A stretch of DNA of 60,725 nt, taken from the NCBI GenBank assembly GCA_016217555.1, contig JACRHW010000008.1, positions 1 through 60,725 on the forward strand, written 5' to 3'. The stretch is from Parcubacteria group bacterium (lineage in GTDB: Bacteria > Patescibacteriota > Minisyncoccia > UBA6257 > JACRHW01). The number at the start of each line of letters is the position of its first letter. The stretch's first letter is position 1. This document shows positions 7,992-48,993 of the stretch, piece by piece. The notes beneath the pieces are model-generated. The model saw only the letters and a list, made by a program, of their open reading frames with translations, had not been told where the DNA came from and ran no database searches. A program made the translations under genes and the position numbers.

Positions 7992-9173
7992 ATGGCACAA
8001 GTTGAAATGTATCGGGTTGCGGAGCTTCCTCACGAGGAGATACATGAGCGTTTTACAAGCCATATCGCACAGGGCGTAAAGACCGAAGAGGGGAACCTCC
8101 AGGAGATCAAGGAGCGTTCGAAAGAGCTTAAATTGAATGGACAGGTTACGCTCGTAGGTCACAGGATCGATAGGGCAAAGAAAGATCTTGTCTTGGAACA
8201 CTCTCTTTATCCGGAACGATACTATCCCAAAATTTCTCCAGATGAGATGAAGTTGTGGGAGATGTGGCTTCCTGAACTGTGTGAACTAGAGGACTATGGG
8301 GAACGACCCAATCACTATTTTATCCCAGAATCGGTACTTGACGAGTATGAAGCGTTGAAGAAGCTTAAGCTATTCGTAAGGTATGTTGTAAGGGCTTGTC
8401 ATCACAAGAAGGGATACGAGCTTCTTCTTATGGGGTTGGGAGAGAATGGCGCCTTTTTCCGTATTGCGCGTTGGGGTGAACGACTTGTTGGTGGAAAAAA
8501 GGTCTCTTCTCTTGTAGGTAAGGTATCTCGTAGACAGAAGTTGCGGGAACTTCTTTTTGGGTCTCCGAATGATATCCAATTTGTGTCGGGATCTCTGGTT
8601 ACCGTAACTCTTATCTCTATGTTGGCTTTTGTTTTTTGGATTGATTTTGTTACAATATCGTTCATGCAAGTAATTTTGGATAATATTCGGAGTGTCCATA
8701 ATGTGGGGTCTATTTTTAGAACTTCTGATGCGGTGGGAGTTGAGAAGGTGTATTTGTGTGGCATTACGCCAACACCTGTCGATCGATTTGGAAATCTTTT
8801 GAATGACTTTGCAAAGACGGCACTTGGCGCAGAAAAGTCAGTGCCTTACGAGAAGGTGTCTTCGACATGGCGATGTATCGAAAAACTCAAAAAAGAGGGA
8901 TTTTTTGTGATTGCACTCGAGCAGACTTCTGGCGCACAAAATCTTTTTACTACCAAACGAATGAGGTTGAACCTCACTCATTTGGTAGTTGTGATAGGGA
9001 ACGAGGTGAAGGGGGTTAGTAAAAGCGCACTAGAACGTGCTGATGCAGTTATAGAAATTCCTATGGTTGGCAAAAAGGAGTCACTTAACGTTGCGGTGGC
9101 ATTTGGGATTGCGGCGTATCAACTTACATTCAAAAATCAAAAGTCAAAACGCAAAACTTCAACTCAAAACTAG
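7992..9173 (+). CDS. SpoU/TrmH-family RNA 2'-O-methyltransferase fused in frame to an unknown 224-aa N-terminal region
   Basis: The C-terminal 169 aa carry LDNIRSVHNVGSIFRTSDAVGV, VVIGNEVKGVS and IEIPMVGKKESLNVAVAFGIAAY (SpoU motifs). The N-terminal part is unrecognised and ends in a hydrophobic segment. Internal ATG 8664 would give a stand-alone methyltransferase. Confidence 0.7.
   Translation: MAQVEMYRVAELPHEEIHERFTSHIAQGVKTEEGNLQEIKERSKELKLNGQVTLVGHRIDRAKKDLVLEHSLYPERYYPKISPDEMKLWEMWLPELCELEDYGERPNHYFIPESVLDEYEALKKLKLFVRYVVRACHHKKGYELLLMGLGENGAFFRIARWGERLVGGKKVSSLVGKVSRRQKLRELLFGSPNDIQFVSGSLVTVTLISMLAFVFWIDFVTISFMQVILDNIRSVHNVGSIFRTSDAVGVEKVYLCGITPTPVDRFGNLLNDFAKTALGAEKSVPYEKVSSTWRCIEKLKKEGFFVIALEQTSGAQNLFTTKRMRLNLTHLVVVIGNEVKGVSKSALERADAVIEIPMVGKKESLNVAVAFGIAAYQLTFKNQKSKRKTSTQN
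9130..9172 (+). repeat. R1 heptamer element, copy forming the 3' end of the SpoU gene
   Basis: tcaaaaatcaaaagtcaaaacgcaaaacttcaactcaaaacta is identical over 43 nt to 9832-9874. It encodes the tail FKNQKSKRKTSTQN and contributes the TAG stop. Confidence 0.9.
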
Positions 9174-9198
9174 AAACAACGCACAATAGTTTTTATTT

Positions 9199-9786
9199 TT
9201 ACGTTGTAGTTTTGGGTTTTGAGTTTTGGGTTTTGAGTTCTTGAAGAAGTGAGTCTAACGCGTTGTCGATTGCCTGGTCAAGAATGGTTTGCTTTTCCTC
9301 TCCTATATGTTGGAGCACGAGTCGTTCTGCCTTGAGGCGTATAGGGCTTTCACTCTCTTCGGGGCGGATACCAATCTTGAGATGCCAAAAATCTTGAGTA
9401 CCTGTGGTCTGTATGATGGATTCTATACCACGATGCCCTCCAGAGCTACCTCCAAACTTGAGTTTGAAATTGCCAAGTATGATGTCAGAATCGTCGTGGA
9501 CGACGACGAGGTGATCTGGGGGCACACTATAGTGTTTAAGGAGGGGGGCAACAACAGTACCCGACTCGTTCATGTAGCAGGAGGGTTTTGCTAGTATGAG
9601 TTCTTCTGAAGAGAATATGGTGCTTGTTATCTTCCGAAAGTTCCATCGGATAGGGATTTTGAGGATTTTTGGAGTCAGAGAAAGCTTTTGGGCGAGGTGG
9701 TCAATAGCCAAAGAACCTACATTATGATAGGTTTTTTCATACTTTTCGCCTGTATTACCAAGGCCTATAATGAGAAATTTGGACAT
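9199..9786 (-). CDS. pth: Peptidyl-tRNA hydrolase
   Basis: FLIIGLGNTGEKYEKTYHNVG at the N-terminus and HDDSD..GGHRG motifs. The C-terminal tail LKTQNSKPKTTT is encoded by an inverted R1-like repeat. Confidence 0.9.
   Translation of the reverse strand: MSKFLIIGLGNTGEKYEKTYHNVGSLAIDHLAQKLSLTPKILKIPIRWNFRKITSTIFSSEELILAKPSCYMNESGTVVAPLLKHYSVPPDHLVVVHDDSDIILGNFKLKFGGSSGGHRGIESIIQTTGTQDFWHLKIGIRPEESESPIRLKAERLVLQHIGEEKQTILDQAIDNALDSLLQELKTQNSKPKTTT
9202..9240 (-). repeat. R1-like heptamer element in inverted orientation (3' end of pth)
   Basis: The reverse complement reads gaactcaaaacccaaaactcaaaacccaaaactacaacg. It faces the 9130-9172 copy across a 29-nt gap. Confidence 0.7.
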
Positions 9787-9831: not shown

Positions 9832-9874
9832 TCAAAAATCAAAAGTCAAAACGCAAAACTTCAACTCAAAACTA
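9832..9874 (+). repeat. R1 heptamer element, intergenic copy between pth and lepB
   Basis: Exact 43-nt copy of 9130-9172. AACTCAAAAC (9863-9872) can pair with GTTTTGAGTT (9889-9898). Confidence 0.9.
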
Positions 9875-9919
9875 AAAAATATATAATGGTTTTGAGTTTT
9901 ACATCTTTATTTTATTATT

Positions 9920-17834: not shown

Positions 17835-17893
17835 TTTTGACGATTTGGGGGTTGTATGCCCCTCGAAACCCGCTCCTGTGAGCGGTTTTTTGT
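17835..17893 (+). repeat. R4 59-bp direct repeat containing a terminator hairpin (left copy)
   Basis: ttttgacgatttgggggttgtatgcccctcgaaacccgctcctgtgagcggttttttgt matches 20679-20737 at 57/59. It contains CCGCTC-ctgt-GAGCGG plus T6. Confidence 0.9.
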
Positions 17894-20678: not shown

Positions 20679-20737
20679 TTTTGACGATTTGGGGGTTGTA
20701 TGATCCTCGAAACCCGCTCCTGTGAGCGGTTTTTTGT
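20679..20737 (+). repeat. R4 59-bp direct repeat (right copy)
   Basis: Matches 17835-17893 at 57/59. Begins 21 nt after the stop of 19881-20657. Confidence 0.9.
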
Positions 20738-29584: not shown

Positions 29585-29717
29585 ATTTTTTTAAGGTTGA
29601 ATTATCAAGACAAAGTGTGATACAGTAGGTTTAGTTTATCTAGGTTCCGGCATAGCTTAGTGATGGAGATGAAAAGCGAATTGTTTCATTCTTCATCGCT
29701 GTCAAAAACTTCAGTGC

Positions 29718-29789
29718 TCCGGCGTAGCTCAGCGGTAGAGCTGCTCGCTGTTAACGAGAGGGTCGCAGGTTCGAATCCTGCCGCCGGAG
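29718..29789 (+). tRNA. tRNA-Asn (anticodon GTT), no encoded CCA
   Basis: Acceptor TCCGGCG/CGCCGGA, D arm GCTC-AGCGGTA-GAGC, anticodon loop CTGTTAA, T arm GCAGG-TTCGAAT-CCTGC, discriminator G. Flanked by a 13-nt complementary leader and trailer. Confidence 0.88.
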
Positions 29790-30151
29790 CACTGAAGTTT
29801 TCGCTAAAAAAAGTTCGGATTTCGTTCAGCGTTTGGAGCAAAAACAAAAAGATCACCCTTGCGGTGGTGTTTTTGTTTTTTAAATAAAACGATAAGGTAA
29901 GGTACTTTATGGCACTGTTTTTTATTGGTCGATAAGAGGGTAGATGGAGTAGGGAAAAAAGGCGATGTGTTTATGGTTTCGAAATATTGAAACACAGTTT
30001 AGTATTATTGAAAATATTTATCCACTTTGATTTTTGTGTTGTAGTTTTATACTATAAGAGATAATGGTCGACATGTGTTTGTTGTAGAGACGATATAAAA
30101 ATTTTTTTTCGACATCGAATGTCGATTTATTTATTAATAATGTAATAGATA

Positions 30152-31696
30152 ATGATTAAAATGAAATCGTTTAAGTTTTTGGCTTTGTTTTCAATTGCAG
30201 GTATGTTACTCGGTGGTTTTCCTGTGTTTGCGCAGACCGCAACGGTTGCGCCATCTTCTTCGCAGGCATTAATCCAGTCGCTCCAAAATCAAATCAGTGT
30301 TTTACAGGCACAACTTGACGCGTTAAGAAAGGCTCAGTCGCAAGTTGTGGGAACAGTAAATGATATTCAAGGAACTCTTAGGCTCATCAATCAACTTCGA
30401 GAGGGAAGTTCTGGCGAAGAGGTAAGGTTGCTTCAAGCCATTCTTGCTTCAAATCCTGAAATTTATCCCGAAGGTCTTATTAGTGGATTTTATGGAAAAC
30501 TTACTTCGAAGGCAATAAAAAGATTTCAAAAGTTATATGGTCTTGACCAGGTAGGGAGGGTTGGCAAAAAAACTCTTGAAAAACTTAATGATGAACTTAG
30601 AAAAAATCCTCTTATTAAGGAGGTTGGAGAGGGTCATGAGGATAGAATTTGTGCCATTGTTCCACCGGGACACCTTATTGCTCCTGGGTGGTTGCGTAAA
30701 CACGATGGTGTTCGTTCCATTGTTCCTCAGTGCCAGAAACTTCCTCCTGGAATTAAGGAATTACTTGAAGGCAAAAAAGCTACAACTACACCACCTATTG
30801 TGGATGTTACTCCACCCACGCTTTCAAATCTTGCGGTAAGTGTTACTAATACGAGTGTACTCGTCATGTGGAGAACGGATGAAAAGTCTACTAGTAAGGT
30901 GTGGTATAGCACAATAAGTCCTGTCGTTGCGACAAGTACTACACCGATGGTAAGCTCTGCTTCTTTTATGAGAGAGCACGCGCTTGTAATAAGTGGTTTG
31001 CTTAGCGGCACAACTTATTATTATGTGGTTGAATCCGTTGATATGTCTGGTAATAAAAGTGTGTCGGCACAGCAATCTTTTATAACATTGCAGACACCAG
31101 ATGTTTCAGTCCCTCTTATTTCTGGAGTAACTGCTACGAGTACGAATGCAACTACTACCCGTATTATTTGGAATACTAATGAGGTGGCAAATAGTAAGGT
31201 TTGGTACAGTACAAGTACTTCTGTTATGGCCACTGGTACTACACCGGTGGTAAGCGATTCGAGTTTTGTTACAAGCCATAATATGGCTCTTGTGGGTCTT
31301 GTGGCGAGTACTACGTATTATTATCGAGTCGAATCAGCTGATGGGGTGGGGAACGTGAGTGTGTCGGATCAACAATCCTTCGTGACACAACAACCTTCTG
31401 ATGTAACGCCCCCAACAATTTCTGGGATAGTAGCAACAAGTACAATGGCTACTTCGACACGCATCGTGTGGTCTACTAATGAGGTGGCCACAAGTAAAGT
31501 ATCATATAGTACTTCATCCCCTGTAGTAGTGAGTACTGCTTCTACGGTGAGTGATGCGGCGTTTCTTCTCAATCATGACATAACGCTTCAGAACCTTATG
31601 GCAAGCAGTACTTATTATTATGTCGCTATTTCTTCTGATGTTGCAGGCAACAGCGCTACTTCAGCAGAAGCTTCTTTTGTCACCCTCGGACAATAA
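30152..31696 (+). CDS. Secreted protein with a peptidoglycan-binding (PG_binding_1-like) domain and three FN3-like repeats
   Basis: Signal peptide. GEEVRLLQAILA...GFYGKLTSKAIKRFQKLYGLDQVGRVGKKTLEKL, then three units of about 100 aa (..W.T.E...SKVWYST......TTYYY.VES.D..GN). Confidence 0.72.
   Translation: MIKMKSFKFLALFSIAGMLLGGFPVFAQTATVAPSSSQALIQSLQNQISVLQAQLDALRKAQSQVVGTVNDIQGTLRLINQLREGSSGEEVRLLQAILASNPEIYPEGLISGFYGKLTSKAIKRFQKLYGLDQVGRVGKKTLEKLNDELRKNPLIKEVGEGHEDRICAIVPPGHLIAPGWLRKHDGVRSIVPQCQKLPPGIKELLEGKKATTTPPIVDVTPPTLSNLAVSVTNTSVLVMWRTDEKSTSKVWYSTISPVVATSTTPMVSSASFMREHALVISGLLSGTTYYYVVESVDMSGNKSVSAQQSFITLQTPDVSVPLISGVTATSTNATTTRIIWNTNEVANSKVWYSTSTSVMATGTTPVVSDSSFVTSHNMALVGLVASTTYYYRVESADGVGNVSVSDQQSFVTQQPSDVTPPTISGIVATSTMATSTRIVWSTNEVATSKVSYSTSSPVVVSTASTVSDAAFLLNHDITLQNLMASSTYYYVAISSDVAGNSATSAEASFVTLGQ
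30800..31690 (+). repeat. Three tandem units of about 300 nt encoding the FN3-like modules
   Basis: Protein repeats are visible by eye. DNA identity is partial. Confidence 0.7.
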
Positions 31697-33331: not shown

Positions 33332-34318
33332 ATGAAATATCAAAAAAAGAGCATGGCGATACAGCAGCTCGCAAATGGTGAAATAGTGAAAATTTATGCG
33401 CATATTTTTACGAGTAGCAAACCGGGACCTACGATATATGTTCAAGGGAATCTGCACGGACCAGAGGTTTTCGGTACTGCATTGCTTATTGAGTTAGTAC
33501 AAGAAATGAAGAAGAATAAAGATTTCAAGGGGAAAATCGTTATTGTTCCATGCGCGAACCCAATGGGCGTAAATAATGTCGTCTATAATGGTATAACCGG
33601 CAGATGGAATCAACAGAGCGGGACTAATTGGAACAGAATATTTTCGATTTCTCCTCTTAAGAATCGCCAAGAAGAAATTGTATTCTATGACAATCTACTA
33701 AAGATAGAAAAGCTATCTATTGAATCAAAATTGGCCGCAATGTTGCGTTCTTTGTCCGCGGGCGCTGATTACGTACTCGATATTCACACAACAGGAATCT
33801 TTAACACGGATCATTTGTTTACCTACTCATGGATGAGTGAAGATTTTTCGGCACTGCAGGCTCCTGTCCATCTTTTACTTGATCCAAAGACGACAGTATG
33901 TGCTTTTGACGAGTCACATGTAATTCCTTTCCTAAAATCGTTGACAAAGAAAGAGGTACCTAAGGTAGCAACGTGGGAGGCACACAGCCATGGGTATTTT
34001 GACAACTTAATACTAAAGCAGCGACTGTCTCAGTTGTTAAATTGGTTAAGAAATACGTGGGGAAACGAAAGCAAACAAAATAATAAACCGGCCATATTTA
34101 AACAATATGCTCATTTAACCGCTCCTGTCGCGGGCTATTATTGTTGGACTAAAAAAGTTGGAGAAAGAGTTTGCGCGGGAGAATCGTATGCAAGGGTCTA
34201 TCAACCCAACAGTGGCGATTTTGTATTCGCAAAGGCCGAAAACGATTTTGTATTACTTGGAATATATGGTGTTGTCGCAACGGCTTCCGGTGAACAAATT
34301 GGTTGGGTGGCTAAATAA
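33332..34318 (+). CDS. Succinylglutamate desuccinylase/aspartoacylase (AstE/AspA, M14-like) family protein
   Basis: IYVQGNLHGPEVFG (H-x-x-E zinc ligands), VIVPCANPMG and LDIHTTG. Confidence 0.7.
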   Translation: MKYQKKSMAIQQLANGEIVKIYAHIFTSSKPGPTIYVQGNLHGPEVFGTALLIELVQEMKKNKDFKGKIVIVPCANPMGVNNVVYNGITGRWNQQSGTNWNRIFSISPLKNRQEEIVFYDNLLKIEKLSIESKLAAMLRSLSAGADYVLDIHTTGIFNTDHLFTYSWMSEDFSALQAPVHLLLDPKTTVCAFDESHVIPFLKSLTKKEVPKVATWEAHSHGYFDNLILKQRLSQLLNWLRNTWGNESKQNNKPAIFKQYAHLTAPVAGYYCWTKKVGERVCAGESYARVYQPNSGDFVFAKAENDFVLLGIYGVVATASGEQIGWVAK

Positions 34319-34389
34319 AATATCGTCCCCGTGGCGGTTTTTATTATCCCATAAAATCTACAGGCGGAGGCTCGTGGAGATTTGAGGAT

Positions 34390-34427
34390 TGTACAAATGG
34401 CACTATGCGTGTTATTTTTTGTTTAGT
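34390..34427 (+). promoter_or_regulatory. R5 palindromic promoter/hairpin module, copy a
   Basis: TGTACA-N17-TATTTT overlapping the hairpin AAATGGCAC-tatgc-GTGTTATTT (two G-T pairs), followed by TTTGTTTAG and AAAGGAGG. Confidence 0.6.
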
Positions 34428-34461
34428 CTTATTAAAAATCAGAGAAAGGAGGAGATATCTA

Positions 34462-34773
34462 ATGAGTTTATACCCACATAGTAGAGAAAGGATCAAAGAG
34501 GTTATTGTAAACAAATATCAAAATGCGGTAGTTCCAAAGAGACTTGATTGTATCGATCTCGTCTCTGCTGCAAAATCAACAGCGATACGAAGAAGTGTGG
34601 CTGGACACATTCTTTGGATGCTTGAAGAAGTTGGTACTATGCCAGAGGAGAAATCTGGAAAGGCGGGAAGATGGATGGGATGGATTTATGCCTGTTTGGA
34701 GACATGGGGGTTTATAACCAATATCGATTCTCGTGATATGGCAAGAGTTGATGCCCATAACCACAACGATTAG
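34462..34773 (+). CDS. Hypothetical protein (103 aa)
   Basis: ATG 34462 lies 8 nt after AAAGGAGGAG; the longer track ORF begins inside the R5 element. No family recognised. Confidence 0.45.
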   Translation: MSLYPHSRERIKEVIVNKYQNAVVPKRLDCIDLVSAAKSTAIRRSVAGHILWMLEEVGTMPEEKSGKAGRWMGWIYACLETWGFITNIDSRDMARVDAHNHND

Positions 34774-34787
34774 GGTGGAAGTGGATA

Positions 34788-34826
34788 TTTACAAATAGCA
34801 CGCGCAGTGTTATTTTTTGTTTAGGT
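34788..34826 (+). promoter_or_regulatory. R5 module, copy b
   Basis: TTTACA-N17-TATTTT with hairpin AAATAGCAC-gcgca-GTGTTATTT, then TTTGTTTAGGTTGTTGAAAAGGAGG. Confidence 0.6.
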
Positions 34827-34847
34827 TGTTGAAAAGGAGGAAAGAAG

Positions 34848-35132
34848 ATGGATATGGAAGATTGTCTCAAAGCATGTGAAGAAATTGCGAAGAAAAGAGG
34901 AATCACCGTAGAAGAACTTGATAGAGAGTTTGAAGAAAGTTTAGAAAAAGTTAGACGAGAGGAATCAGAACGAACGATGGACTGTCTAGGCTATGCACAC
35001 CATGATTATCTTCAGGCAACTGGTACGTTATCAACAGAATCTTGGATACATATTCTCGATTGCAAATATTGTGAGCGACGGGTGAGAACATTGTTGGGTT
35101 TGCCTGGGACCGAAAAAGATAAAAACAATTAA
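34848..35132 (+). CDS. Hypothetical acidic protein (94 aa) with a C-terminal CxxC
   Basis: ORF directly after R5 copy b and an SD. No family recognised. Confidence 0.45.
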   Translation: MDMEDCLKACEEIAKKRGITVEELDREFEESLEKVRREESERTMDCLGYAHHDYLQATGTLSTESWIHILDCKYCERRVRTLLGLPGTEKDKNN

Positions 35133-35162
35133 TGCGCACACCTTCCAGATGGAGTAGCGCCG

Positions 35163-35182
35163 GCCGAGATTCTCGGCTTTTT
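35163..35182 (+). terminator. Intrinsic terminator of the CGAGAT-ATCTCG type
   Basis: GCCGAG-att-CTCGGC followed by TTTTT. Confidence 0.75.
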
Positions 35183-35259
35183 ATTTTATCAAACATATCA
35201 ATTTTTCTTTGCTACTTTTTACCAAAGCGCAGATTTCAAAAAGTTCGGAAAAGAGGGTA

Positions 35260-35514
35260 TTAGGTTTTGTATTTTATTATCAATACAACGATGATGAGAT
35301 TAAAGACAAGGTTTAATAGTTGTACTAATATAAAAACGGCATCATGTATTGATAGTGCATAGGCCAAAATCATTACAGTACTTACCAACCAGGTGGTCCA
35401 CGTTATTATGTTTACTCCTTTTGAGTTTTTATTTTTTAATAAGGAGATAACCTGAGGTATGTAAGCGATGGTGCCAATAATAGTACCAGCGAATCCAATA
35501 GTTTGTAGAATCAT
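35260..35514 (-). CDS. SemiSWEET / PQ-loop sugar transporter (3 TM)
   Basis: 84 aa with three hydrophobic helices. IAYIPQVISLLKNKNSKGV is a PQ-loop motif. One of the three minus-strand genes called in the window. Confidence 0.72.
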   Translation of the reverse strand: MILQTIGFAGTIIGTIAYIPQVISLLKNKNSKGVNIITWTTWLVSTVMILAYALSIHDAVFILVQLLNLVFNLIIVVLIIKYKT

Positions 35515-35643
35515 ATGTGTTGTTTCTTGTATTATAGCAAATCGGCGCTGTTTATGGAGACGTACACGGATGGCCAGGCGGACTTGACTTTTGTATGAAA
35601 TTAGTGTTATAACATAAACATACCTGGAAGGAGGTATAACGAA

Positions 35644-36066
35644 ATGAAGAGAATGCTAGTATTGGTGGGTCTTTTTTTGTTCCTGGGCGTACAGAGTTCC
35701 TACGCCGAGATGACTGTGACTCCGGAGGCCCGCGCGTTCGCGAGGGCGCACGGGATGGAGATCACGGTCGTGAACCACGTCGTGAAGATTGGGCCTTTTT
35801 GGCAGAAGGGTCCGACTGGGAAGTTCACGGTGGCGGATCTCACCTGCCCGGAGAGCGATTCGACGTTTTCTGTGGTGCTCTGTGAGGGGCAGATCAAGGT
35901 CATTCAGAAGGTGATCGATGCGCCGGGGCAAAAGGTCGGCCTGTCGGTCATCGGTGAGAAGTCGCATAAAAATACTTTCTTCCTCTCTCCATTAGGGGAT
36001 CACATGGTCCTCGACCACTGCGTCATGGGGACGCAGTCAATCACAAAGGAGCTCCCCAAAAGGTAG
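35644..36066 (+). CDS. Small secreted protein with a GC-rich mature region
   Basis: Promoter-like TTGACT-N17-TTATAA (35584-35612), then an SD. Signal peptide MKRMLVLVGLFLFLGVQSSYA. The body has 42/60 G+C in line 35701-35760. Confidence 0.55.
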   Translation: MKRMLVLVGLFLFLGVQSSYAEMTVTPEARAFARAHGMEITVVNHVVKIGPFWQKGPTGKFTVADLTCPESDSTFSVVLCEGQIKVIQKVIDAPGQKVGLSVIGEKSHKNTFFLSPLGDHMVLDHCVMGTQSITKELPKR

Positions 36067-36085
36067 CTCCGAGACAAAAGGAGAG

Positions 36086-36106
36086 GCGCTCATCGAGCGC
36101 TTTTTT
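36086..36106 (+). terminator. Intrinsic terminator
   Basis: GCGCTC-atc-GAGCGC followed by T6. Confidence 0.8.
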
Positions 36107-36151
36107 GTTATCCTTTGAACGTCGTGAGCGGAAGCTTATGGATAGATGGAT

Positions 36152-36200
36152 GTCATTATGCCATGTCATAATGACAAAGCGCAGCTTGTGTTGGTATAAT
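36152..36200 (+). promoter_or_regulatory. Strong sigma70-like promoter overlapped by a perfect 9-bp inverted repeat
   Basis: TGACAA (36172-36177), N17, TATAAT (36195-36200, preceded by TGG). GTCATTATG (36152-36160) and CATAATGAC (36167-36175) overlap the -35. Confidence 0.55.
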
Positions 36201-36294
36201 GCCGTGGGTGGAAAAGCTTGCGAAGATTCACTTCTTCTTTTTGGGTTTATCTAAAAACTTTCTTCTTGGTGTGGTATTTGATAGCATAGAATAT

Positions 36295-36594
36295 ATGAAT
36301 AATGGACAATTTTTTATTGATATAGCTAGGGCAGGTATCGGACTTTCTATAGGAGGTCGTCCAGAGCATGTAGTAAGGTTACTTGTTGTTCTTCTCGATC
36401 TCGAAGTTGCGTTAGATAAGGGGCGAGGGCTTGTTTTTGATTCTCCGGAATTTAGGACAGAGATAAACACACTCATGGATGCATTAAGGAAAAGAATTCG
36501 TGACATATTAGATACTATGGATGGCAATGAGGTGGCACGCATCTTGGAGGAGCGAGGGGAGAGTCTTAAAAGACAATTTTCAATTTCTCGTTAG
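36295..36594 (+). CDS. Hypothetical protein (99 aa)
   Basis: ATG 36295 was chosen because ATG 36199 overlaps the predicted -10. An antisense ORF (36228-36542) is also open, so the assignment is weak. Confidence 0.35.
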   Translation: MNNGQFFIDIARAGIGLSIGGRPEHVVRLLVVLLDLEVALDKGRGLVFDSPEFRTEINTLMDALRKRIRDILDTMDGNEVARILEERGESLKRQFSISR

Positions 36595-36673
36595 ACTTTT
36601 ACGCAACAGTTGGTTGTCGCTATAATACAACAAAGGTTGAAAACCATTACTAATAAACAAAAAAGTAATTTTT

Positions 36674-36877
36674 ATGAAAAAAGGTGATATCGTAAGGGCT
36701 ATTCTGGAGGCGGGGATTTGGTACGTTTTTACATGGTATTTGCTTTATGTTTTAAAGAATCCTGTGGAACTTTGGTTTGCGGCTCTGGTTCTTTTGGTTT
36801 TAATGTATGCTGGGGTTTTGATTTGTCCATGGGTCCGTTATACAAGTAGCTGGCGCAGAATGGTTGGTAAAGAATAG
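36674..36877 (+). CDS. Small two-TM membrane protein (67 aa)
   Basis: Hydrophobic segments GIWYVFTWYLLYVL and FAALVLLVLMYAGVLICPW. TATAAT at 36631-36636 lies upstream. Confidence 0.4.
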   Translation: MKKGDIVRAILEAGIWYVFTWYLLYVLKNPVELWFAALVLLVLMYAGVLICPWVRYTSSWRRMVGKE

Positions 36878-36905
36878 ATGTTTGGAAAAGATAGTATCGT
36901 AGACC

Positions 36906-36945
36906 TATACAAATAGCACTGCGTGTGCTATTTTTTGTTTAGGTC
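36906..36945 (+). promoter_or_regulatory. R5 module, copy f
   Basis: TATACA-N17-TATTTT with a perfect hairpin AAATAGCAC-tgcgt-GTGCTATTT, then TTTGTTTAGGTCGTTGA. Confidence 0.6.
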
Positions 36946-36980
36946 GTTGATTTTTGAAAGAAGGAAAGGGGTGGCTTTTT

Positions 36981-37256
36981 GTGACTGAGGGTGATAACGA
37001 GGCAAAACGAGCGTTGTGGGCAAGAAGTGTGAGGAAGAAGGCAAATAAAGTTATTGTGAAAGAACTTCTTAAGCGTTTTTTGCCTGGGTGGACTCTTGTT
37101 GATGATACTCAGATTCCTGAGGATAGAATAGTGAATCTTGGAGACGAGGTTACAGTAGGTATTAAGAATGCGAGTCTCTCAAAAACCACCACCGTGATGA
37201 TTGCCAATGGAGACATTTTTTATTACGAGGAGGGTGTGGGAGGATGTTCGTGGTGA
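36981..37256 (+). CDS. Hypothetical protein (about 91 aa)
   Basis: GTG 36981 lies 9 nt after AAGGAAAGGGG. The track ORF starts at TTG 36954. No family recognised. Confidence 0.4.
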   Translation: MTEGDNEAKRALWARSVRKKANKVIVKELLKRFLPGWTLVDDTQIPEDRIVNLGDEVTVGIKNASLSKTTTVMIANGDIFYYEEGVGGCSW

Positions 37257-37272
37257 TCCTTAGATAAAAAAG

Positions 37273-37298
37273 AAAAGTCGAGATATCTCGACTTTTTT
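37273..37298 (+). terminator. Intrinsic terminator of the CGAGAT-ATCTCG type
   Basis: AAAAGTCGAGAT/ATCTCGACTTTTTT. Confidence 0.8.
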
Positions 37299-37358
37299 CT
37301 ATACAACAGATGCATGATTCGTAGACATTAGAGCAGTTTATTATATAATGAACGTATT

Positions 37359-37763
37359 ATGGAATTATATTTGGTTTTATTGCTTGTGTTTTCAGGGATT
37401 GGAATTGCAAATACATCTTATTTGGCGTATCACGCTATTACAAAAACAGATGTGGCGTGCATCTTTTTTCCGAAGGAGTGGTGCCGGAAGGTTCAATATA
37501 GCAAACAAAGCAAAACATTTGGGATTTCTAACTCCTATCTTGGATTAGTGATGTATCTTTCCATTTTTGGATTAACTATTGGATATGTGTATGGTTTCGC
37601 CATTCCTTTTTGGTGGATCCAGTGTGTTGTTGGGTTTGGGTTCCTTTTTTCAATGTATTTCACCTTCGTGCAAGCGTTTGTTTTGAGAGCGTTTTGTACA
37701 TGGTGTGTGGTCTCTGCAATTAATTTTGTGGTGATGGCGATTGCATCTTTTGTTCTCTATTAA
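37359..37763 (+). CDS. Vitamin K epoxide reductase (VKOR) family membrane protein
   Basis: Four TM segments, loop cysteines (..VACIFFPKEWC..) and a CxxC within a TM helix (FCTWCVVSAINF). Confidence 0.68.
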   Translation: MELYLVLLLVFSGIGIANTSYLAYHAITKTDVACIFFPKEWCRKVQYSKQSKTFGISNSYLGLVMYLSIFGLTIGYVYGFAIPFWWIQCVVGFGFLFSMYFTFVQAFVLRAFCTWCVVSAINFVVMAIASFVLY

Positions 37764-37796
37764 AGAGGAGATAAAGCGTTGTTTTCACACATAGTC

Positions 37797-37836
37797 TGTA
37801 CAAATGATACATGGTGTGCTATTTTGGCTTTGTTCC
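37797..37836 (+). promoter_or_regulatory. R5 module, copy h (most diverged)
   Basis: TGTACA-N17-TATTTT with a weakened hairpin AAATGATAC-atggt-GTGCTATTT, then ..CCTTGAAAAGG...AAAAAGGAGG. Confidence 0.5.
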
Positions 37837-37872
37837 TTGAAAAGGAAAATAGGAAAAAGGAGGAGTATTCCC

Positions 37873-38319
37873 ATGTTTGGACTTGTTCTTGCTGTTTTGT
37901 ATGCTGCCTACCTTTATGCAATAACAAAGGCCCCACAGGAGGTTGCTTATCTAAATAGTAGCAATTTTCTTTTTTGGTGGTACGTCGTGTGGGCTGTTGT
38001 TACGGGAGCGTTTTTGGTTGTAATGATTCTTGGTTTTCTCTTTGTGGGAGGAGTTGGTGGAGCCATGAGTGGAGGACCGTTGGGAGCTTTTCTTGGTCTT
38101 GGGGCGGGAGGAGCGATTTCTGGGCTTCTTGTGCTCGGTGGTGTTATTAACAATGTTCTTTTTGTTGGGGGTGCATATTTGCTTCATTCTGCACTTGTCC
38201 ATCAGGCTACAGGATATACATGGGATATGGGGCGTTTGGTTATTGGAGGGCTTCTTCTCCTTATTGGTATCTTATCCACGCGAAGCAGTTCGGGTAGTAG
38301 TTTAAATAATTCAGATTAG
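37873..38319 (+). CDS. Glycine-rich integral membrane protein (148 aa)
   Basis: ATG 37873 after AAAAAGGAGGAG; the track ORF begins inside the R5 element. Four hydrophobic, Gly-rich segments. Confidence 0.5.
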   Translation: MFGLVLAVLYAAYLYAITKAPQEVAYLNSSNFLFWWYVVWAVVTGAFLVVMILGFLFVGGVGGAMSGGPLGAFLGLGAGGAISGLLVLGGVINNVLFVGGAYLLHSALVHQATGYTWDMGRLVIGGLLLLIGILSTRSSSGSSLNNSD

Positions 38320-38450
38320 TTTTTGTATCAAAAATAAATCCGTCACATCGTGGCGGTTTTTTTATGGACAAAATATGTGTTTCATGATACGGTTCACTTA
38401 GAAAACGTGGTGGGAGTAATCTCACCATCATTGAAAAAAGGAGGTGTTGT

Positions 38451-38648
38451 ATGGGTGAAATGTTAATTGGTGAACCCATGAAATGTGGTATCGGGCAGGG
38501 TGAGAAGTGTTGTGTATTTCTTGTTTCTTCTCCAAACGGATTCGAGTGTGTAAGGGATACTCTTATGGGAAAAGCCTGTTTTTTCCGCAATAATATGAAG
38601 GCAAAGAGAGCCCCTATCCAGCCGTTTCCCGAGTGTCAGTTGAAATAA
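38451..38648 (+). CDS. Small Cys-rich protein (65 aa)
   Basis: AAAAGGAGG SD. Seven Cys, including KCGIGQGEKCCVFL..GFEC. Confidence 0.4.
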   Translation: MGEMLIGEPMKCGIGQGEKCCVFLVSSPNGFECVRDTLMGKACFFRNNMKAKRAPIQPFPECQLK

Positions 38649-38730
38649 TTGTTGTACAAGCCGTATGGGAATACCCAGCGGTTTTTATTTTTTTGTGTTA
38701 TGTAGAAATTAATTATATACTGGAATTATC

Positions 38731-39090
38731 ATGAACAGCTCTGTGCATACTACCAATAAAAATCTAAGGTTTGGGATATATTTTTTCCCCATTTTTATTA
38801 TTGGACTACTTATTATTCTCAATATTCCGCTTAATTTACCTGTACCCGGGATTGATGGCGAGGATTTTGATCTTATTCTTAGCCAGTCAACCACTGCTCT
38901 AAATTCAGATAGACATTCAAATTATCTTAGTATTTGGGGGAAGACCTTTTTTGGTACTTCTGTGGTGGGGGAAGATAGCATAACTTTTTTGTTTGCAGTA
39001 TTTAGTTTCGTACTTGGGTTTTCAATATATCGCTTAATAGACAACGTATCGTTGCGTGCCCCCCCGTTGATTATGGGTTTCTCTGATTAA
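38731..39090 (+). CDS. Membrane protein (119 aa)
   Basis: Two hydrophobic helices. No family recognised. Confidence 0.4.
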   Translation: MNSSVHTTNKNLRFGIYFFPIFIIGLLIILNIPLNLPVPGIDGEDFDLILSQSTTALNSDRHSNYLSIWGKTFFGTSVVGEDSITFLFAVFSFVLGFSIYRLIDNVSLRAPPLIMGFSD

Positions 39091-39119
39091 TAATAATTTA
39101 ATTTTTTTTATTGAAATAT

Positions 39120-39530
39120 ATGACTAAAAAAATGATAACAGCAACATCAATTCTTGCGATGTTGTTAGCAAATTCAGTGGCGTTTGCCCAAACATCAACG
39201 GTAACGACCTCGATAGCGACATCGACGGTTTCAGTTGGAACCGCACCAACATGTACACAAACTGCCACCGCTACGTATAAAACAGCTCAGAGTGCAGCAA
39301 AGTATGCTCATATTGCTGCCATAGCGGCAGCCAATGATGCGCACAAAGCCGCCGTCGCCTCTGCAAATGGCCTTATTGATAAAAAGGCAAAAAAGGCTGC
39401 TCTTGGTACAGCAAAAAAGGCACTGCAGGATGCTAAGAAAAAAGCAGACAAAGATTTACAGGTTGCCAACCGTGCTGCGAGTGCAAAGTATGCAGTAGAT
39501 AAGAAGGCGTGTCCCAAGAAACATAAGTAA
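39120..39530 (+). CDS. Secreted Ala/Lys-rich protein
   Basis: ATG 39120 (the track starts at TTG 39111). Signal peptide ITATSILAMLLANSVAFAQ and an A/K-rich helical body. Confidence 0.5.
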   Translation: MTKKMITATSILAMLLANSVAFAQTSTVTTSIATSTVSVGTAPTCTQTATATYKTAQSAAKYAHIAAIAAANDAHKAAVASANGLIDKKAKKAALGTAKKALQDAKKKADKDLQVANRAASAKYAVDKKACPKKHK

Positions 39531-39549
39531 TTACACGGTTTTTAGGATT

Positions 39550-39594
39550 CTCGACAAACTAGCACCATGTGTGCTAGTTTTGTTTTAGGTCATT
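39550..39594 (+). promoter_or_regulatory. R5 module, copy l
   Basis: 45 nt identical to 40588-40632. TCGACA-N18-TAGTTT with a 12-bp hairpin ACAAACTAGCAC-catgt-GTGCTAGTTTTGT (one bulged T). Confidence 0.65.
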
Positions 39595-39614
39595 GAAAAG
39601 GGGGGAAGATAGGA

Positions 39615-40199
39615 ATGTGTACCAAAAAACTTTCATCAGATAAACTTTTGGTTGCTGTTTTTGAAGAAATTAAGAAAAGATTTTTAAAAAGGGCCATTAA
39701 TATTCATGGAGAAAATTATGTACACAAGTTTCACACCAATCAGTGTCCTCTTGCGCTTATCGGTGATGATTCTGATGACCATAGAATTAGGGCTGGTTTC
39801 ATGCGTTATGAAGAAATGGCGGTGGTAAGGATTAATAATACGTGTTGGGCAATCGCGCTAGGTTCAGCATGTGGTGACTATCCTGCCGACCCATACAGCA
39901 AAGATATTACCGCTGTACAGATGGATGAAATACCCGTACCCGAGTTGCTTAAGAGGAGTTGTTATTTTTTGAATTCGTTGATTGCGAGTAAACGATTTGG
40001 CGGAGAGCTCTTCTTTATGAGATATGTTGGTTCTCGATTAAACCCATTTGGAACACAAATGGTTGAATTTTTAGAGAAAAATTGGGAAGGTAATTTCCAA
40101 CGAGTAGGTTCACACGAGCAAGAATTTGTGAATGTTGTTGTGGATGGCATTATTCATACTCTCTCAAATTTTGTAGAATTTGACATGAAAGATGAATAG
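39615..40199 (+). CDS. Hypothetical protein (194 aa)
   Basis: ORF directly downstream of R5 copy l. No family recognised. Confidence 0.5.
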   Translation: MCTKKLSSDKLLVAVFEEIKKRFLKRAINIHGENYVHKFHTNQCPLALIGDDSDDHRIRAGFMRYEEMAVVRINNTCWAIALGSACGDYPADPYSKDITAVQMDEIPVPELLKRSCYFLNSLIASKRFGGELFFMRYVGSRLNPFGTQMVEFLEKNWEGNFQRVGSHEQEFVNVVVDGIIHTLSNFVEFDMKDE

Positions 40200-40255
40200 T
40201 GGTATACAATATATGGTTCTTTGAGCCTAAATTCAAGGAATAGGAGGTGGGCCAC

Positions 40256-40546
40256 GTGAAGATGTATGCATTACGCGATGTGAAGCTTGAGAGAGGAAAA
40301 ATAACAGAACATCGTTCCGACGGAAACGTTATTGGGGTTGTCCAGTATGCGGGTGTAAATGGAGATGGGTCTCTTGGGGTTGGTTGGTATACGGGCTCCA
40401 ATCGTACCACTTGTTTTTCTCCAGATTCTTGGGAATTTGAGATAAATGGCGATGTTATTGTTCTCACACGCATAGGTTTTGATGTGGGAACGTGTGATCT
40501 GCCGTATTATGGTTCTAACAAATACACCATCGTTTTGGGAAAATAA
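40256..40546 (+). CDS. Hypothetical protein (about 96 aa)
   Basis: GTG 40256 lies 8 nt after AGGAGG; alternatives are GTG 40247 and ATG 40262. Confidence 0.4.
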   Translation: MKMYALRDVKLERGKITEHRSDGNVIGVVQYAGVNGDGSLGVGWYTGSNRTTCFSPDSWEFEINGDVIVLTRIGFDVGTCDLPYYGSNKYTIVLGK

Positions 40547-40553
40547 ATGTATT

Positions 40554-40576
40554 GCCGAGATATCTCGGCTTTTTTA
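40554..40576 (+). terminator. Intrinsic terminator of the CGAGAT-ATCTCG type
   Basis: GCCGAGAT/ATCTCGGC followed by T6. It lies 12 nt upstream of R5 copy n. Confidence 0.85.
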
Positions 40577-40587
40577 TTCCACGATAC

Positions 40588-40632
40588 CTCGACAAACTAG
40601 CACCATGTGTGCTAGTTTTGTTTTAGGTCATT
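40588..40632 (+). promoter_or_regulatory. R5 module, copy n
   Basis: Identical 45 nt to copy l, followed by CTTAAAAGGAGG and ATG 40653. Confidence 0.65.
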
Positions 40633-40652
40633 CTTAAAAGGAGGACACGATT

Positions 40653-40955
40653 ATGCTGTTCTATGTTTGCCTTCGTGATTTGAACAAACCACGCTCGCCA
40701 TTCATTCCTATTTTGCAGGTGGTAAAACAGGATTATTGGGAAAATGTGGAGGATTATGTCGTTGATAACCCAGAGAGGGAGGCGTTAGAAGAGTTTACTA
40801 AGAAAATCTGTGAAATGGAATCAATTCCTGTTAACACCGATATATTCATCACGTGGTTTGGGGTTGAGGGGGAGAGGAGTTTCGAGTTTCCCCAAGAGTT
40901 TTTGCAGCTTGTTTCTGAAAAGGGGCTAAGGGTTATTCTTAGTCTTGAGTTCTAA
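40653..40955 (+). CDS. Hypothetical acidic protein (100 aa)
   Basis: ORF directly downstream of R5 copy n. Followed by the hairpin ATTCCACAT-gatg-TGTGGGAT plus T-run. Confidence 0.45.
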   Translation: MLFYVCLRDLNKPRSPFIPILQVVKQDYWENVEDYVVDNPEREALEEFTKKICEMESIPVNTDIFITWFGVEGERSFEFPQEFLQLVSEKGLRVILSLEF

Positions 40956-41072
40956 GAGGAAAATGGTGTTTAGTTTTAATTCCACATGATGTGTGGGATT
41001 TTTATTTGGATCTGTGGATAACGTGGTGTAAAAAGTTTGTTATACTACAGGTAAACTAAAAGTAACAAAATT

Positions 41073-48654: not shown

Positions 48655-48686
48655 CTCTGTATTTTTGTGGTACAGAGTTTTTATTT
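48655..48686 (+). terminator. Intrinsic terminator after obg
   Basis: CTCTGTA-N9-TACAGAG followed by TTTTTATTT. Confidence 0.7.
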
Positions 48687-48689
48687 GGT

Positions 48690-48718
48690 TTGACATATAC
48701 CCCTAGGGGGTATAGACT
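48690..48718 (+). promoter_or_regulatory. csoR promoter with a CsoR-type operator
   Basis: TTGACA (48690-48695), palindrome TATACCCC-TA-GGGGGTATA (48696-48714) and TAGACT (48713-48718). ATG 48727 follows within 9 nt. Confidence 0.7.
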
Positions 48719-48726
48719 ATCGTTAT

Positions 48727-48993
48727 ATGCATGGAGTATATAAACCAAAACTGATGCGACGTCTTAAGATTATTGAGGGACAGGTGCGTGGATTGCAGGA
48801 GATGATTGAGAAGGATACATATTGTATCGATGTCATTACACAGACGTCTGCGGTTAAGCAGGCGTTGTCGGGTGTGGAGGATGTTCTTATGAAAAATCAT
48901 TTGAGTACGTGTGTGGTGCATCAAATTCAAAAAGACCAAGAAAAAAAGGCAATTCATGAGATACTTAAGGTGTATCGTCTTAAACGAAAATAA
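48727..48993 (+). CDS. csoR: CsoR/RcnR-family metal-sensing repressor
   Basis: RLKIIEGQVRGLQEMIEKDTYCIDVITQTSAVKQAL...HLSTCV, giving the C-H-C ligand pattern. Confidence 0.85.
   Translation: MHGVYKPKLMRRLKIIEGQVRGLQEMIEKDTYCIDVITQTSAVKQALSGVEDVLMKNHLSTCVVHQIQKDQEKKAIHEILKVYRLKRK

Follow-up and report, generated by a model that had tools for sequence, protein, structure and literature searches.

The 60,725-nt stretch analysed here (hereinafter, the window) is contig JACRHW010000008.1 of a Parcubacteria group bacterium (NCBI GenBank assembly GCA_016217555.1), a member of the Patescibacteria. Its histidyl-tRNA synthetase (HisRS) shares 92% identity with a protein assigned to a 'Parcubacteria group bacterium'. 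It has a GC content of 41.6% and carries housekeeping genes, for example, those for the CCA-adding enzyme, ribonucleotide reductase and AcrB, along with an island in which a short palindromic module recurs in front of small orphan open reading frames (ORFs). There are six copies of the module (a, b, h, j, l and n), all on the plus strand between positions 34390 and 40632. They start at 34390, 34788, 36906, 37797, 39550 and 40588, as an earlier note on this DNA had reported from the letters alone, and a module is indeed present at each of these positions; the sequences of copies l and n do not differ in any of 45 nt (39550-39594 and 40588-40632), likewise in agreement with that note. Every copy is followed, at a distance of 25-41 nt and on the same strand, by an ORF with a Shine-Dalgarno sequence ahead of its start codon (34462, 34848, 36981, 37873, 39615 and 40653; GTG at 36981), and the genes neighbouring the modules are all in tandem. 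The six ORFs are mutually unrelated (blastp, E > 2) and have no match in Pfam, and no homologue of ORF l was found among 5.8 billion proteins. Pfam searches with these six ORFs and 14 of their neighbours detected no regulator, integrase or shared domain. When a degenerate pattern with up to 3 mismatches was used, four copies were matched in the window compared with none in 100 shuffles, and a profile built from relatives recovered five copies at E = 3e-8 to 1e-6, the best match being copy h (E = 2.6e-8), with copy j weak at E = 0.5. We propose that each copy is probably a sigma70-type extended -10 promoter with the hairpin of an intrinsic terminator nested inside it. The sigma70-like promoter and the RNA hairpin with a U-tract had been put forward earlier as alternative readings; both find support, but as descriptions of one overlapping element rather than as alternatives.

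The signature of a promoter is common to all six copies: a -35-like hexamer is found 16-18 bp before a hexamer of the form TAnnnT, the second base being A and the sixth T. The spacer is 17 nt in a, b, h and j, and 18 nt in l and n; the -10 hexamer is TATTTT in the former four and TAGTTT in the latter two. In every copy, TG occupies -15/-14, in the form of GTGT or GTGC before the -10 hexamer. The base 7 nt past the hexamer is A in five copies and G in copy j, and the predicted leaders are 25-41 nt long. Extended -10 promoters of the sigma70/SigA type ('TGn', the -16 'TRTG' of Gram-positive bacteria) are an established promoter class, and the module resembles them in that (G)TGn precedes TAnnnT, the -35 element is 17-18 bp away and the +1, roughly 7 nt on, is a purine; it differs in having TATTTT or TAGTTT instead of TATAAT and a spacer complementary to the -10 region. 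The same anatomy is apparent in 79 database matches that were retrieved with only ACAAA and the palindrome fixed, the three preceding bases being free. In 65 of the 79, these bases are TTG (45), TAG (13) or TTT (7), which completes the hexamers TTGACA, TAGACA or TTTACA at exactly 17-18 bp from TATTTT, and the base 7 nt past the hexamer is A in 49 of the 79.

The independence of the right arm from the palindrome was tested by a metagenome scan for TTGACA-N13/14-GTGCTATTTTTG, with the left arm left free, which yielded at least 120 loci. About 85 among the 120 matches listed have non-palindromic spacers and belong to unrelated bacteria outside the Candidate Phyla Radiation (CPR), and on five independent contigs the right-arm element GTGCTATTTT lies 7-8 nt before the 5' end of tRNA-Pro. 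Because it occurs with non-palindromic spacers, including those before tRNA-Pro genes, the right arm GTGCTATTTT, that is, (R)TGn followed by TAtttT, is, judged by its sequence, an ordinary extended -10 element. The promoter features also persist where the hairpin does not. Copy j retains them despite the decay of its hairpin and, at about position 590 of L016 (we use L numbers for loci from other genomes and metagenomes), a promoter that shares its lineage and leader has no palindromic left arm; the tRNA upstream of it has its own terminator. Thus, the promoter component of the module is well supported by conservation, and initiation would be expected at the predicted site.

Rho-independent (intrinsic) terminators include bidirectional ones, with an A-tract before the hairpin and a U-tract after it, and the module has both tracts. 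It shares with these terminators a 9-10 bp stem, a 5-nt loop, a U-rich tail, a folding energy close to that of the neighbouring terminators and a location 15-35 nt past stop codons. The hairpins of copies a, b, h, l and n have predicted energies of -7.0 to -13.7 kcal/mol, compared with -4.9 to -14.7 kcal/mol for the canonical terminators of the island, and these five copies combine a stable hairpin with a U-tract; copy j (-1.8 kcal/mol) does not. The module departs from the typical intrinsic terminator in two respects: its AT-rich stem, with 3-4 G-C pairs, is conserved, in contrast to the neighbouring terminators, each of which is GC-rich and has a sequence of its own, and two of its copies stand right behind another terminator. 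As the predicted +1 of the module itself comes only after the hairpin, the latter could be transcribed only from the upstream gene. Modules b, h, j and l come directly after ORFs that have no other terminator: module b begins 15 nt past the stop of ORF a and is the sole terminator-like element at that junction, and the ORFs preceding modules h, j and l are, respectively, those at 36674-36877, 37359-37763 (VKOR family) and 39120-39530. The ORFs of the island that are not followed by a module end in canonical GC-rich terminators. The interpretation of the hairpin as an attenuator, which had been considered earlier, is not supported: the hairpin immediately follows the preceding ORF and ends before the predicted +1, and a leader that could act as a sensor is therefore missing.

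In relatives, an upstream ORF is co-directional with the module at 64 of the 72 copies and, in other genomes, the module starts 4-5 nt past tRNA genes, the 3' end of which is a place where a terminator is expected. Across the CPR loci, a separate terminator was found within 100 nt upstream of 4 of the 52 hairpin-bearing promoters versus 12 of the 53 promoter-like sites without a hairpin, which is a modest difference (p = 0.055) between sequences that are not phylogenetically independent.

The pairing itself appears to be maintained on the plus strand. Among the window copies, RNAalifold predicts 9 pairs. Five one-sided changes preserve the pairing as G·U or U·G, copies l and n share one compensatory change from A-U to C-G, and pairing is broken just once, in copy j. 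The left arm of that copy is mutated to AAATGATAC, so that one A·C break and two wobbles nearly abolish the hairpin, with the -35 and -10 elements kept. The earlier proposal that pairing is preserved through G·U on the plus strand is borne out by these changes. The extra C and G noted in copies l and n prove to be compensatory, as a substitution; the additional nucleotide is an insertion at a more upstream position, and it lengthens the spacer from 17 to 18 nt. In a broader set, where the right arm was fixed by the search and left arms were chosen only by a Hamming distance of up to 2 from the consensus, 32 distinct left arms include 18 transitions that keep a plus-strand G·U, one that gives A·C, and eight transversions. 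With pairing opportunities of 5:2, this 18:1 wobble asymmetry is modest (binomial p = 0.014) for sequences that are not phylogenetically independent.

Furthermore, the left arm, which is complementary to the -10 region, covaries with it where the hexamer differs (TATGTT, TATATT, TATACT), and several other stems covary, namely AACATACC/GGTATGTT, AATATACT/GGTATATT, AGTATACC/GGTATACT and ATACCA/TGGTAT (examples of variant modules are included in Table 1). In 567 kb, 14 non-canonical cases with a stem of at least 9 bp were detected, compared with 0-2 (mean 0.5) in ten dinucleotide shuffles. The support for the variant stems comes from these shuffles and from the substitution asymmetry, given that a pairing test on a set selected for pairing would be circular. 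L016 has a module of this kind at each of six consecutive gene junctions in 7 kb, and four different stems are represented among them. A hairpin that would form in the sense-strand RNA is thus supported by covariation and wobble asymmetry.

From the observed anatomy, conservation, covariation, strand asymmetry and genomic placement of the module, we infer both initiation and termination. In the DNA, T(T/G/A/C)(T/G)ACA would serve as the -35 element, and (G)TGn+TA(T/G)TTT, located 17-18 bp on, as the extended -10 element, and transcription of the downstream orphan gene would start at the conserved A 7 nt past the hexamer, yielding a 25-41 nt leader with a Shine-Dalgarno sequence. The RNA of the upstream gene would fold such that the 5' half of the spacer, AAATAGCAC, pairs with the extended -10 and -10 elements, GTGCTATTT, the run TATTTTTTGTTT serving as the U-tract. 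Upstream transcripts would end within a few nucleotides of the start of the next transcript: on predicted positions, the transcription termination site (TTS) falls at most 35 bp before the same-strand transcription start site (TSS), and in five copies, the distance from the end of the hairpin to the predicted +1 is 8 nt. The use of TAtttT in place of TATAAT might be a compromise, with A-11 and T-7 retained for sigma and U residues provided for termination. That near-identical copies precede orphan genes which are unrelated, and do so in a variable island, is best accounted for by reuse or propagation of the promoter along with newly acquired genes, rather than by a shared regulator. The coordinates of the modules, hairpins and downstream ORFs are given in Table 1.

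Table 1. Modules, predicted hairpins and downstream ORFs in the window, and variant modules from CPR loci
Feature	Position	Strand	Description
Module a	34390..34425	+	-35 TGTACA 34390-34395; 17-nt spacer; extended -10 TGT+TATTTT 34410-34418
Module a hairpin	34395-34417	+	left arm 34395-34403, loop 34404-34408, right arm 34409-34417; U-tract to 34424; predicted +1 A34425; -7.0 kcal/mol top strand, -2.6 bottom strand
Module b	34788..34823	+	-35 TTTACA 34788-34793; 17-nt spacer; TGT+TATTTT to 34816; promoter-like with TG in scan
Module b hairpin	34793-34815	+	predicted +1 A34823; -8.3 kcal/mol top strand, -3.6 bottom strand
Module h	36906..36941	+	-35 TATACA 36906-36911; 17-nt spacer; TGC+TATTTT 36926-36934
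Module h hairpin	36911-36933	+	9 pairs, terminator-like in scan; -10.5 kcal/mol; predicted +1 A36941
Module j (decayed)	37797..37832	+	-35 TGTACA 37797-37802; 17-nt spacer; TGC+TATTTT 37817-37825
Module l	39551..39587	+	-35 TCGACA 39551-39556; 18-nt spacer; TGC+TAGTTT 39572-39580
Module l hairpin	39556-39580	+	10 bp, terminator-like (10 pairs) in scan; -13.7 kcal/mol; predicted +1 A39587
Module n	40589..40625	+	-35 TCGACA 40589-40594; -10 TAGTTT 40613-40618; hairpin 40594-40618, terminator-like in scan; predicted +1 A40625
ORF a	34462..34773	+	103 aa, orphan
ORF b	34848..35132	+	94 aa, orphan; followed by canonical terminator 35162-35178
ORF h	36981..37256	+	91 aa, GTG start, orphan; followed by canonical terminator 37273-37296
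ORF j	37873..38319	+	148 aa, Gly-rich membrane protein, orphan
ORF l	39615..40199	+	194 aa, orphan
ORF n	40653..40955	+	100 aa, orphan; followed by terminator 40978-41000
Variant module	CPR loci		TTGACA-AAAAACATACC-TTGT-GGTATGTTTTTT; -10 TATGTT
Variant module	CPR loci		...AAAAATATACT-AATGA-GGTATATTTTTT; -10 TATATT
Variant module	CPR loci		...AAAAGTATACC-TTAT-GGTATACTTTTT; -10 TATACT
Variant module	CPR loci		...AAAATACCA-...-TGGTATTTT; -10 TATTTT
Variant module	CPR loci		...AAAGTGTAGCA-TTA-TGCTACGCTTTT; -10 TACGCT

The search with the relatives' profile added nothing to the six copies in the whole 60.7 kb, but the motif recurs across the Patescibacteria. The pattern ACAAA-N1-2-RGCAC-N5-GTGYTA-N-TTTT, scanned over 185,579 species genomes, identified 75 loci, mostly in Patescibacteria of many classes (among the taxa matched are Falkowbacteria, Moranbacteria, Sungiibacteriota, Saccharibacteria, Paceibacterota, Yanofskybacteria and Peribacteria), with 2-4 matches per genome in several genomes. 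The core TTGACA-AA(A)TAGCAC-N5-GTGCTATTTTT is present in at least 60 contigs of Patescibacteria, ahead of miscellaneous accessory genes. Across many CPR classes, ATAGCAC/GTGCTAT is by far the commonest version of the stem, and the loop varies freely. On sequence evidence, then, the module is a widespread motif of Patescibacteria and is not specific to the locus in the window. A phage-specific motif was ruled out, with just 2 matches in a scan of viral contigs. The genes downstream of the module in relatives encode GNAT, MazG and NUDIX proteins, methyltransferases, a SOUL protein and prolyl-tRNA synthetase (ProRS), and many have no Pfam match; they do not form a functional regulon. In Rfam 15, only two tRNAs reached the gathering score in the window, with no family on the modules, and nothing overlapping any module was detected in 34300-40700 at E values up to 5. 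Literature searches for the motif sequence and for mapping of TSSs in Patescibacteria returned nothing relevant. A relative that encodes an AstE-like protein with 80% identity has different genes downstream and no module. In that genome (L199:2700-2760), we observed the sequence TACAAATAG-TGCTATCTTTATTT, which is module-like, with the inner stem and loop (CAC-N5-G) deleted, and hints at the decay of a former copy in a sibling genome with a different island content.

Several observations weigh against the combination of promoter and terminator in one element. The -35 hexamers in the window are weak, with 4-5 of 6 matches. Copies a and n are located just past canonical terminators, where a second terminator is redundant: the terminator at 34322-34345 is about 45 nt before module a, and module n begins 12 nt past the T-run of a terminator with its stem at 40554-40569, exactly the distance given in the earlier note. 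Copy j is devoid of a usable hairpin, which leaves its upstream gene without any terminator, and 8 of the 72 CPR copies come behind an oppositely oriented gene, so that there is no co-directional transcript to terminate. Both the wobble asymmetry and the complementary distribution of separate terminators are modest, as indicated above. Finally, the dominance of ATAGCAC/GTGCTAT across CPR classes exceeds what would be needed if any complementary stem sufficed; this uniformity could reflect either an extra, sequence-specific reader or common descent or propagation of one module.

The former possibility corresponds to an explanation that we consider unlikely, namely, that the palindrome ATAGCAC-N5-GTGCTAT is the operator of one conserved dimeric regulator, alone or alongside its role as a hairpin. 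The palindrome is in the classic position for a repressor, in the spacer and overlapping the -10 element, its stem dominates across many CPR classes with the loop left free, and its half-site resembles that of CIRCE, TTAGCAC. There is also the precedent of a terminator palindrome that doubles as a LexA site (bioRxiv 10.64898/2026.08.19.745784), and a promoter with a palindromic spacer but without a U-tract is present at 48689 in the window. However, the extended -10 element alone accounts for the right arm, copies l and n insert or alter a pair within the 'half-site', the downstream genes are functionally miscellaneous, and the strand-asymmetric, G·U-favouring substitutions are not predicted for an operator in double-stranded DNA. 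The stems differ, and covary with the -10 element, inside the single 8-kb array of L016, and a single sequence-specific regulator could not account for the four different stems of this array. The earlier idea of a common operator for one dimeric regulator is not supported: covarying stems differ within single genomes, there is no regulon, and no helix-turn-helix (HTH) gene was found nearby (Pfam on ORFs of the island, 30-44 kb, the region where an HTH regulator beside a copy was sought). A true CIRCE of N9 spacing is also present, before dnaJ on a CPR contig (see below). Still less probable, and by our estimate very unlikely, is the view that the module is only a Rho-independent terminator or a stabilizer of 3' ends, with a coincidental match to -35 and -10 elements and with downstream genes expressed by readthrough or from other promoters. 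The hairpin with its U-tract and upstream A-tract, as in bidirectional terminators, would be expected in this case, the scan lists h, l and n as terminator-like, and non-CPR matches without TTG (e.g. L032, L054 and L064) resemble plain terminators. Against this stand the prevalence of TTG, TAG or TTT at free positions outside the stem (65 of 79), the conservation of A at the predicted +1, the location of copies a and n immediately behind another terminator, the retention of -35 and -10 elements without a stem in copy j and in L016 at about 590, a stem sequence far more conserved than is usual for terminators, and a same-strand ORF after every copy.

We also deem it quite improbable that the module is a recombination site or the end of a mobile element, be it the border of gene cassettes captured site-specifically (similar to an integron attC or to the attachment (att)-proximal end of a tRNA-targeting element) or a miniature inverted-repeat transposable element (MITE) or repetitive extragenic palindrome (REP), such that the palindrome is recognized by a recombinase or transposase. 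The module does precede unrelated orphan genes in an island that differs in the relative with the 80%-identity protein, copies l and n are identical, and in other CPR genomes modules occur, in arrays, directly after tRNA-Gln, tRNA-Asn or tRNA-Arg genes or after 15-30 nt remnants of their 3' ends; moreover, a hairpin substrate in single-stranded DNA would produce G·U asymmetry as well. However, no integrase, transposase or REP-associated tyrosine transposase (RAYT)-like gene is found in 30-44 kb, where Pfam detects no recombinase domain in ORFs beside the modules; the earlier statement that no integrase is in view holds for this region. No window copy is preceded by a tRNA remnant, and the loop, which would contain the crossover, differs between copies, making them poor mutual substrates. 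The integron core sites are not evident either: inspection of the modules revealed no R''(RYYYAAC)/R'(GTTRRRY) pair, and GTTTAGG is incompatible with GTTRRRY. What repeats as an att-like part in the tRNA arrays is the remnant of the tRNA, and the hairpin stems vary between cassettes; because the stems differ while the remnant repeats, the hairpin is not the conserved recombination site. The promoter features suffice to explain the conservation. An integron attC, in particular, was rejected as there is no IntI and there are no core sites, and the element is 5' of an ORF and has its own promoter.

CIRCE, the operator of HrcA, has the form TTAGCACTC-N9-GAGTGCTAA, with arms of 9 bp, and is found upstream of the groESL and hrcA-grpE-dnaK-dnaJ operons. 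The module and CIRCE have in common the half-site core TAGCAC/GTGCTA and an inverted repeat that overlaps the promoter, but the cores are 5 nt apart in the module and 13 nt apart in CIRCE, the arms of the module lack TC/GA, and the genes downstream of the module are orphans or miscellaneous, in contrast to the groES, dnaK and dnaJ genes behind CIRCE. A search for CIRCE with up to 3 mismatches in the window gave no match, and the spacing and the gene context rule out identity of the module with CIRCE. On one CPR-type metagenome contig, a genuine CIRCE, TTAGCACTC-N9-GATTGCTAA, is located upstream of a dnaJ-like ORF (L189:1172-1198), and a canonical module is present at about position 132, which implies that these bacteria do have HrcA-type control, separate from the module.

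The site at 48655-48717 in the window deserves separate mention. A canonical terminator (48655-48685) is followed there by TTGACA-TATACCCC-TAG-GGGGTATAGACT, upstream of the ORF at 48727-48993; the 17-nt spacer of this promoter-like site is a GC-rich perfect palindrome, and there is no U-tract. This site is a candidate for either a true operator in the spacer or another hairpin promoter.

The module, in our reading a promoter that encloses a terminator, is most likely a variant, with a different geometry, of a coupling between promoter and terminator that was first reported in a preprint of 2026. That work provides experimental maps of promoter-coupled terminators for A. baumannii, E. coli and B. 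subtilis (Fletcher, Forrest, ... Grainger, bioRxiv 10.64898/2026.08.19.745784, August 2026); a termination site precedes the start site by about 10 bp, both signals use the same DNA, the coupled promoter raises termination efficiency, and one stem palindrome doubles as a LexA site. As in those cases, the terminator in the module overlaps, on the same strand, the promoter of the next tandem gene, and intergenic regions between the co-directional genes are short. The geometries differ: in the preprint, the stem-loop is at or upstream of the -35 element, the T-tract is in the spacer and a separate -10 element comes after it, whereas in the module, the hairpin is inside the spacer, the right arm comprises the extended -10 element and the -10 hexamer, and the U-tract is formed by the -10 hexamer and the discriminator. 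Furthermore, in the module, the left arm covaries with the -10 element, and the predicted TTS and TSS nearly coincide. Also unlike the preprint cases, one sequence version of the module is conserved across a superphylum and repeated before unrelated genes. The positions in the preprint were mapped experimentally, whereas those in the module are predicted. The preprint geometry was tried on the window copies and rejected because there is no acceptable -10 element after the T-tract and the corresponding -35 element would be poor. Another parallel is provided by putative mobile promoters, or promoter reuse, in which highly similar upstream regulatory sequences are found, both inside one genome and across genomes, before genes that are not homologous (Nijveen, Matus-Garcia, van Passel 2012, PMC3575422). 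That study is a census of sequence similarity and does not deal with embedded terminators, but the near-identical modules before unrelated genes match promoter reuse.

The context of the module in other Patescibacteria adds a further aspect. A segment resembling a T-loop and another resembling an acceptor arm are both located just upstream of 16 of the 84 modules, compared with 21 of 11,119 background positions. In L016 and L009, this association takes the form of arrays in which tRNA-Gln is followed by genes, then by a tRNA remnant with a module, then by genes again, and so on. In L016:400-7000, small accessory-gene units extend downstream of tRNA-Gln, with six such junctions in 7 kb. Arrays are also seen in L003, L005, L007, L026, L042, L046, L057, L067, L146 and L184, and involve tRNA-Asn or tRNA-Arg as well. 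The first 15-30 nt of each unit are a remnant of the 3' end of the tRNA (GTTCSAATC...CCCCGAGCA), directly followed by the module in the form of TTGACA, hairpin and U-tract, and ftsE/ftsX are usually upstream of the array tRNA. Of the Pfam families matched by 107 ORFs of the tRNA-Gln arrays, the 25 listed include no integrase. The arrangement suggests serial site-specific capture at a tRNA, where each unit would possess its own terminator and promoter beside an att remnant. Islands of this kind, seeded at tRNAs and containing repeats of partial tRNAs, are exemplified by the tycheposons of Prochlorococcus (bioRxiv 10.1101/2020.12.28.424599). In the CPR arrays, similarly, accessory genes are arranged in series, and the module comes after a tRNA gene or after repeats of a partial tRNA; the window island, 4.6 kb downstream of tRNA-Asn and variable between relatives, is placed like tRNA-seeded islands. 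The differences from tycheposons are that the window copies have no partial tRNA, no integrase is seen, and the cassettes of the CPR arrays are very small (1-3 genes).

A tentative extension of these observations, to which we assign a low probability, is that the module is the leading end of very small, integrase-less cassettes of 1-3 genes that are captured serially at the 3' ends of tRNA-Gln, tRNA-Asn and tRNA-Arg. The hairpin would then re-terminate the tRNA or the previous cassette, the promoter would express the cargo, and the window island would be an old example with decayed att remnants. If true, this would amount to an integron-like system of gene capture with self-contained expression signals. 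For the window island, the cassette origin is unproven. Local alignment of tRNA-Asn and tRNA-Pro to the 70 nt before each window copy gave scores below the 95th percentile of shuffles. As for the description of the island as a cassette-like, modular set, the window shows no integrase, att-like remnant or integron features; the island is variable between relatives, and the module does mark tRNA-remnant arrays elsewhere in Patescibacteria. On either side of the tRNA-Asn(GTT) of the window (29710-29798) is one arm of an 8-nt inverted repeat (cttcagtg ... cactgaag), by which the acceptor stem would be longer in the precursor. This tRNA gene is not followed by a module, unlike the tRNA-Asn in L015 and L019, and the island starts a few kilobases downstream.

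Patescibacteria account for a large share of bacterial diversity and are mostly uncultivated, and we know of no mapped promoters or terminators in this group. The module provides a concrete, testable transcription signal for these bacteria. It appears to be an unusually clean natural case of promoter-terminator coupling in which the -10 hexamer is part of the terminator stem and U-tract, with the consequence that promoter sequence and RNA structure covary. In this manner, streamlined genomes would compress the punctuation between genes to about 35 bp, which would explain the recurrence of TATTTT-type -10 elements and palindromic spacers in genomes of Patescibacteria. Recognition of the module should improve the prediction of operons and gene boundaries in metagenome-assembled genomes of the CPR, and the module might be of use in synthetic biology as a compact insulating part. 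The link with accessory orphan genes and with tRNA-remnant arrays suggests that new genes could arrive already equipped for expression.

Apart from the module, the window contains several other repeats. A 59-nt repeat, 97% identical between its two copies (17835-17893 and 20679-20737), includes TTGACG, a terminator-like CCGCTCCTGTGAGCGGTTTTTT and a short hairpin of G/C pairs. Its copies are upstream of a gene for an ABC-transporter ATPase domain (18003) and a ribonucleotide reductase gene (20924), and could represent a shared leader, an attenuator or a small RNA. Three copies of a 47-nt, CAAAA-rich repeat (TCAAAAATCAAAAGTCAAAACGCAAAAC...) occur at 3690-3736, 9130-9176 and 9832-9878; two of these, which are 98% identical, flank the minus-strand ORF 9199-9786. 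Finally, a 90-nt direct repeat with 72% identity (30866-30955 and 31166-31255), inside the ORF at 30152-31696, corresponds to repeated domains similar to purple-acid-phosphatase-N/fn3 in a secreted protein with a peptidoglycan-binding domain.

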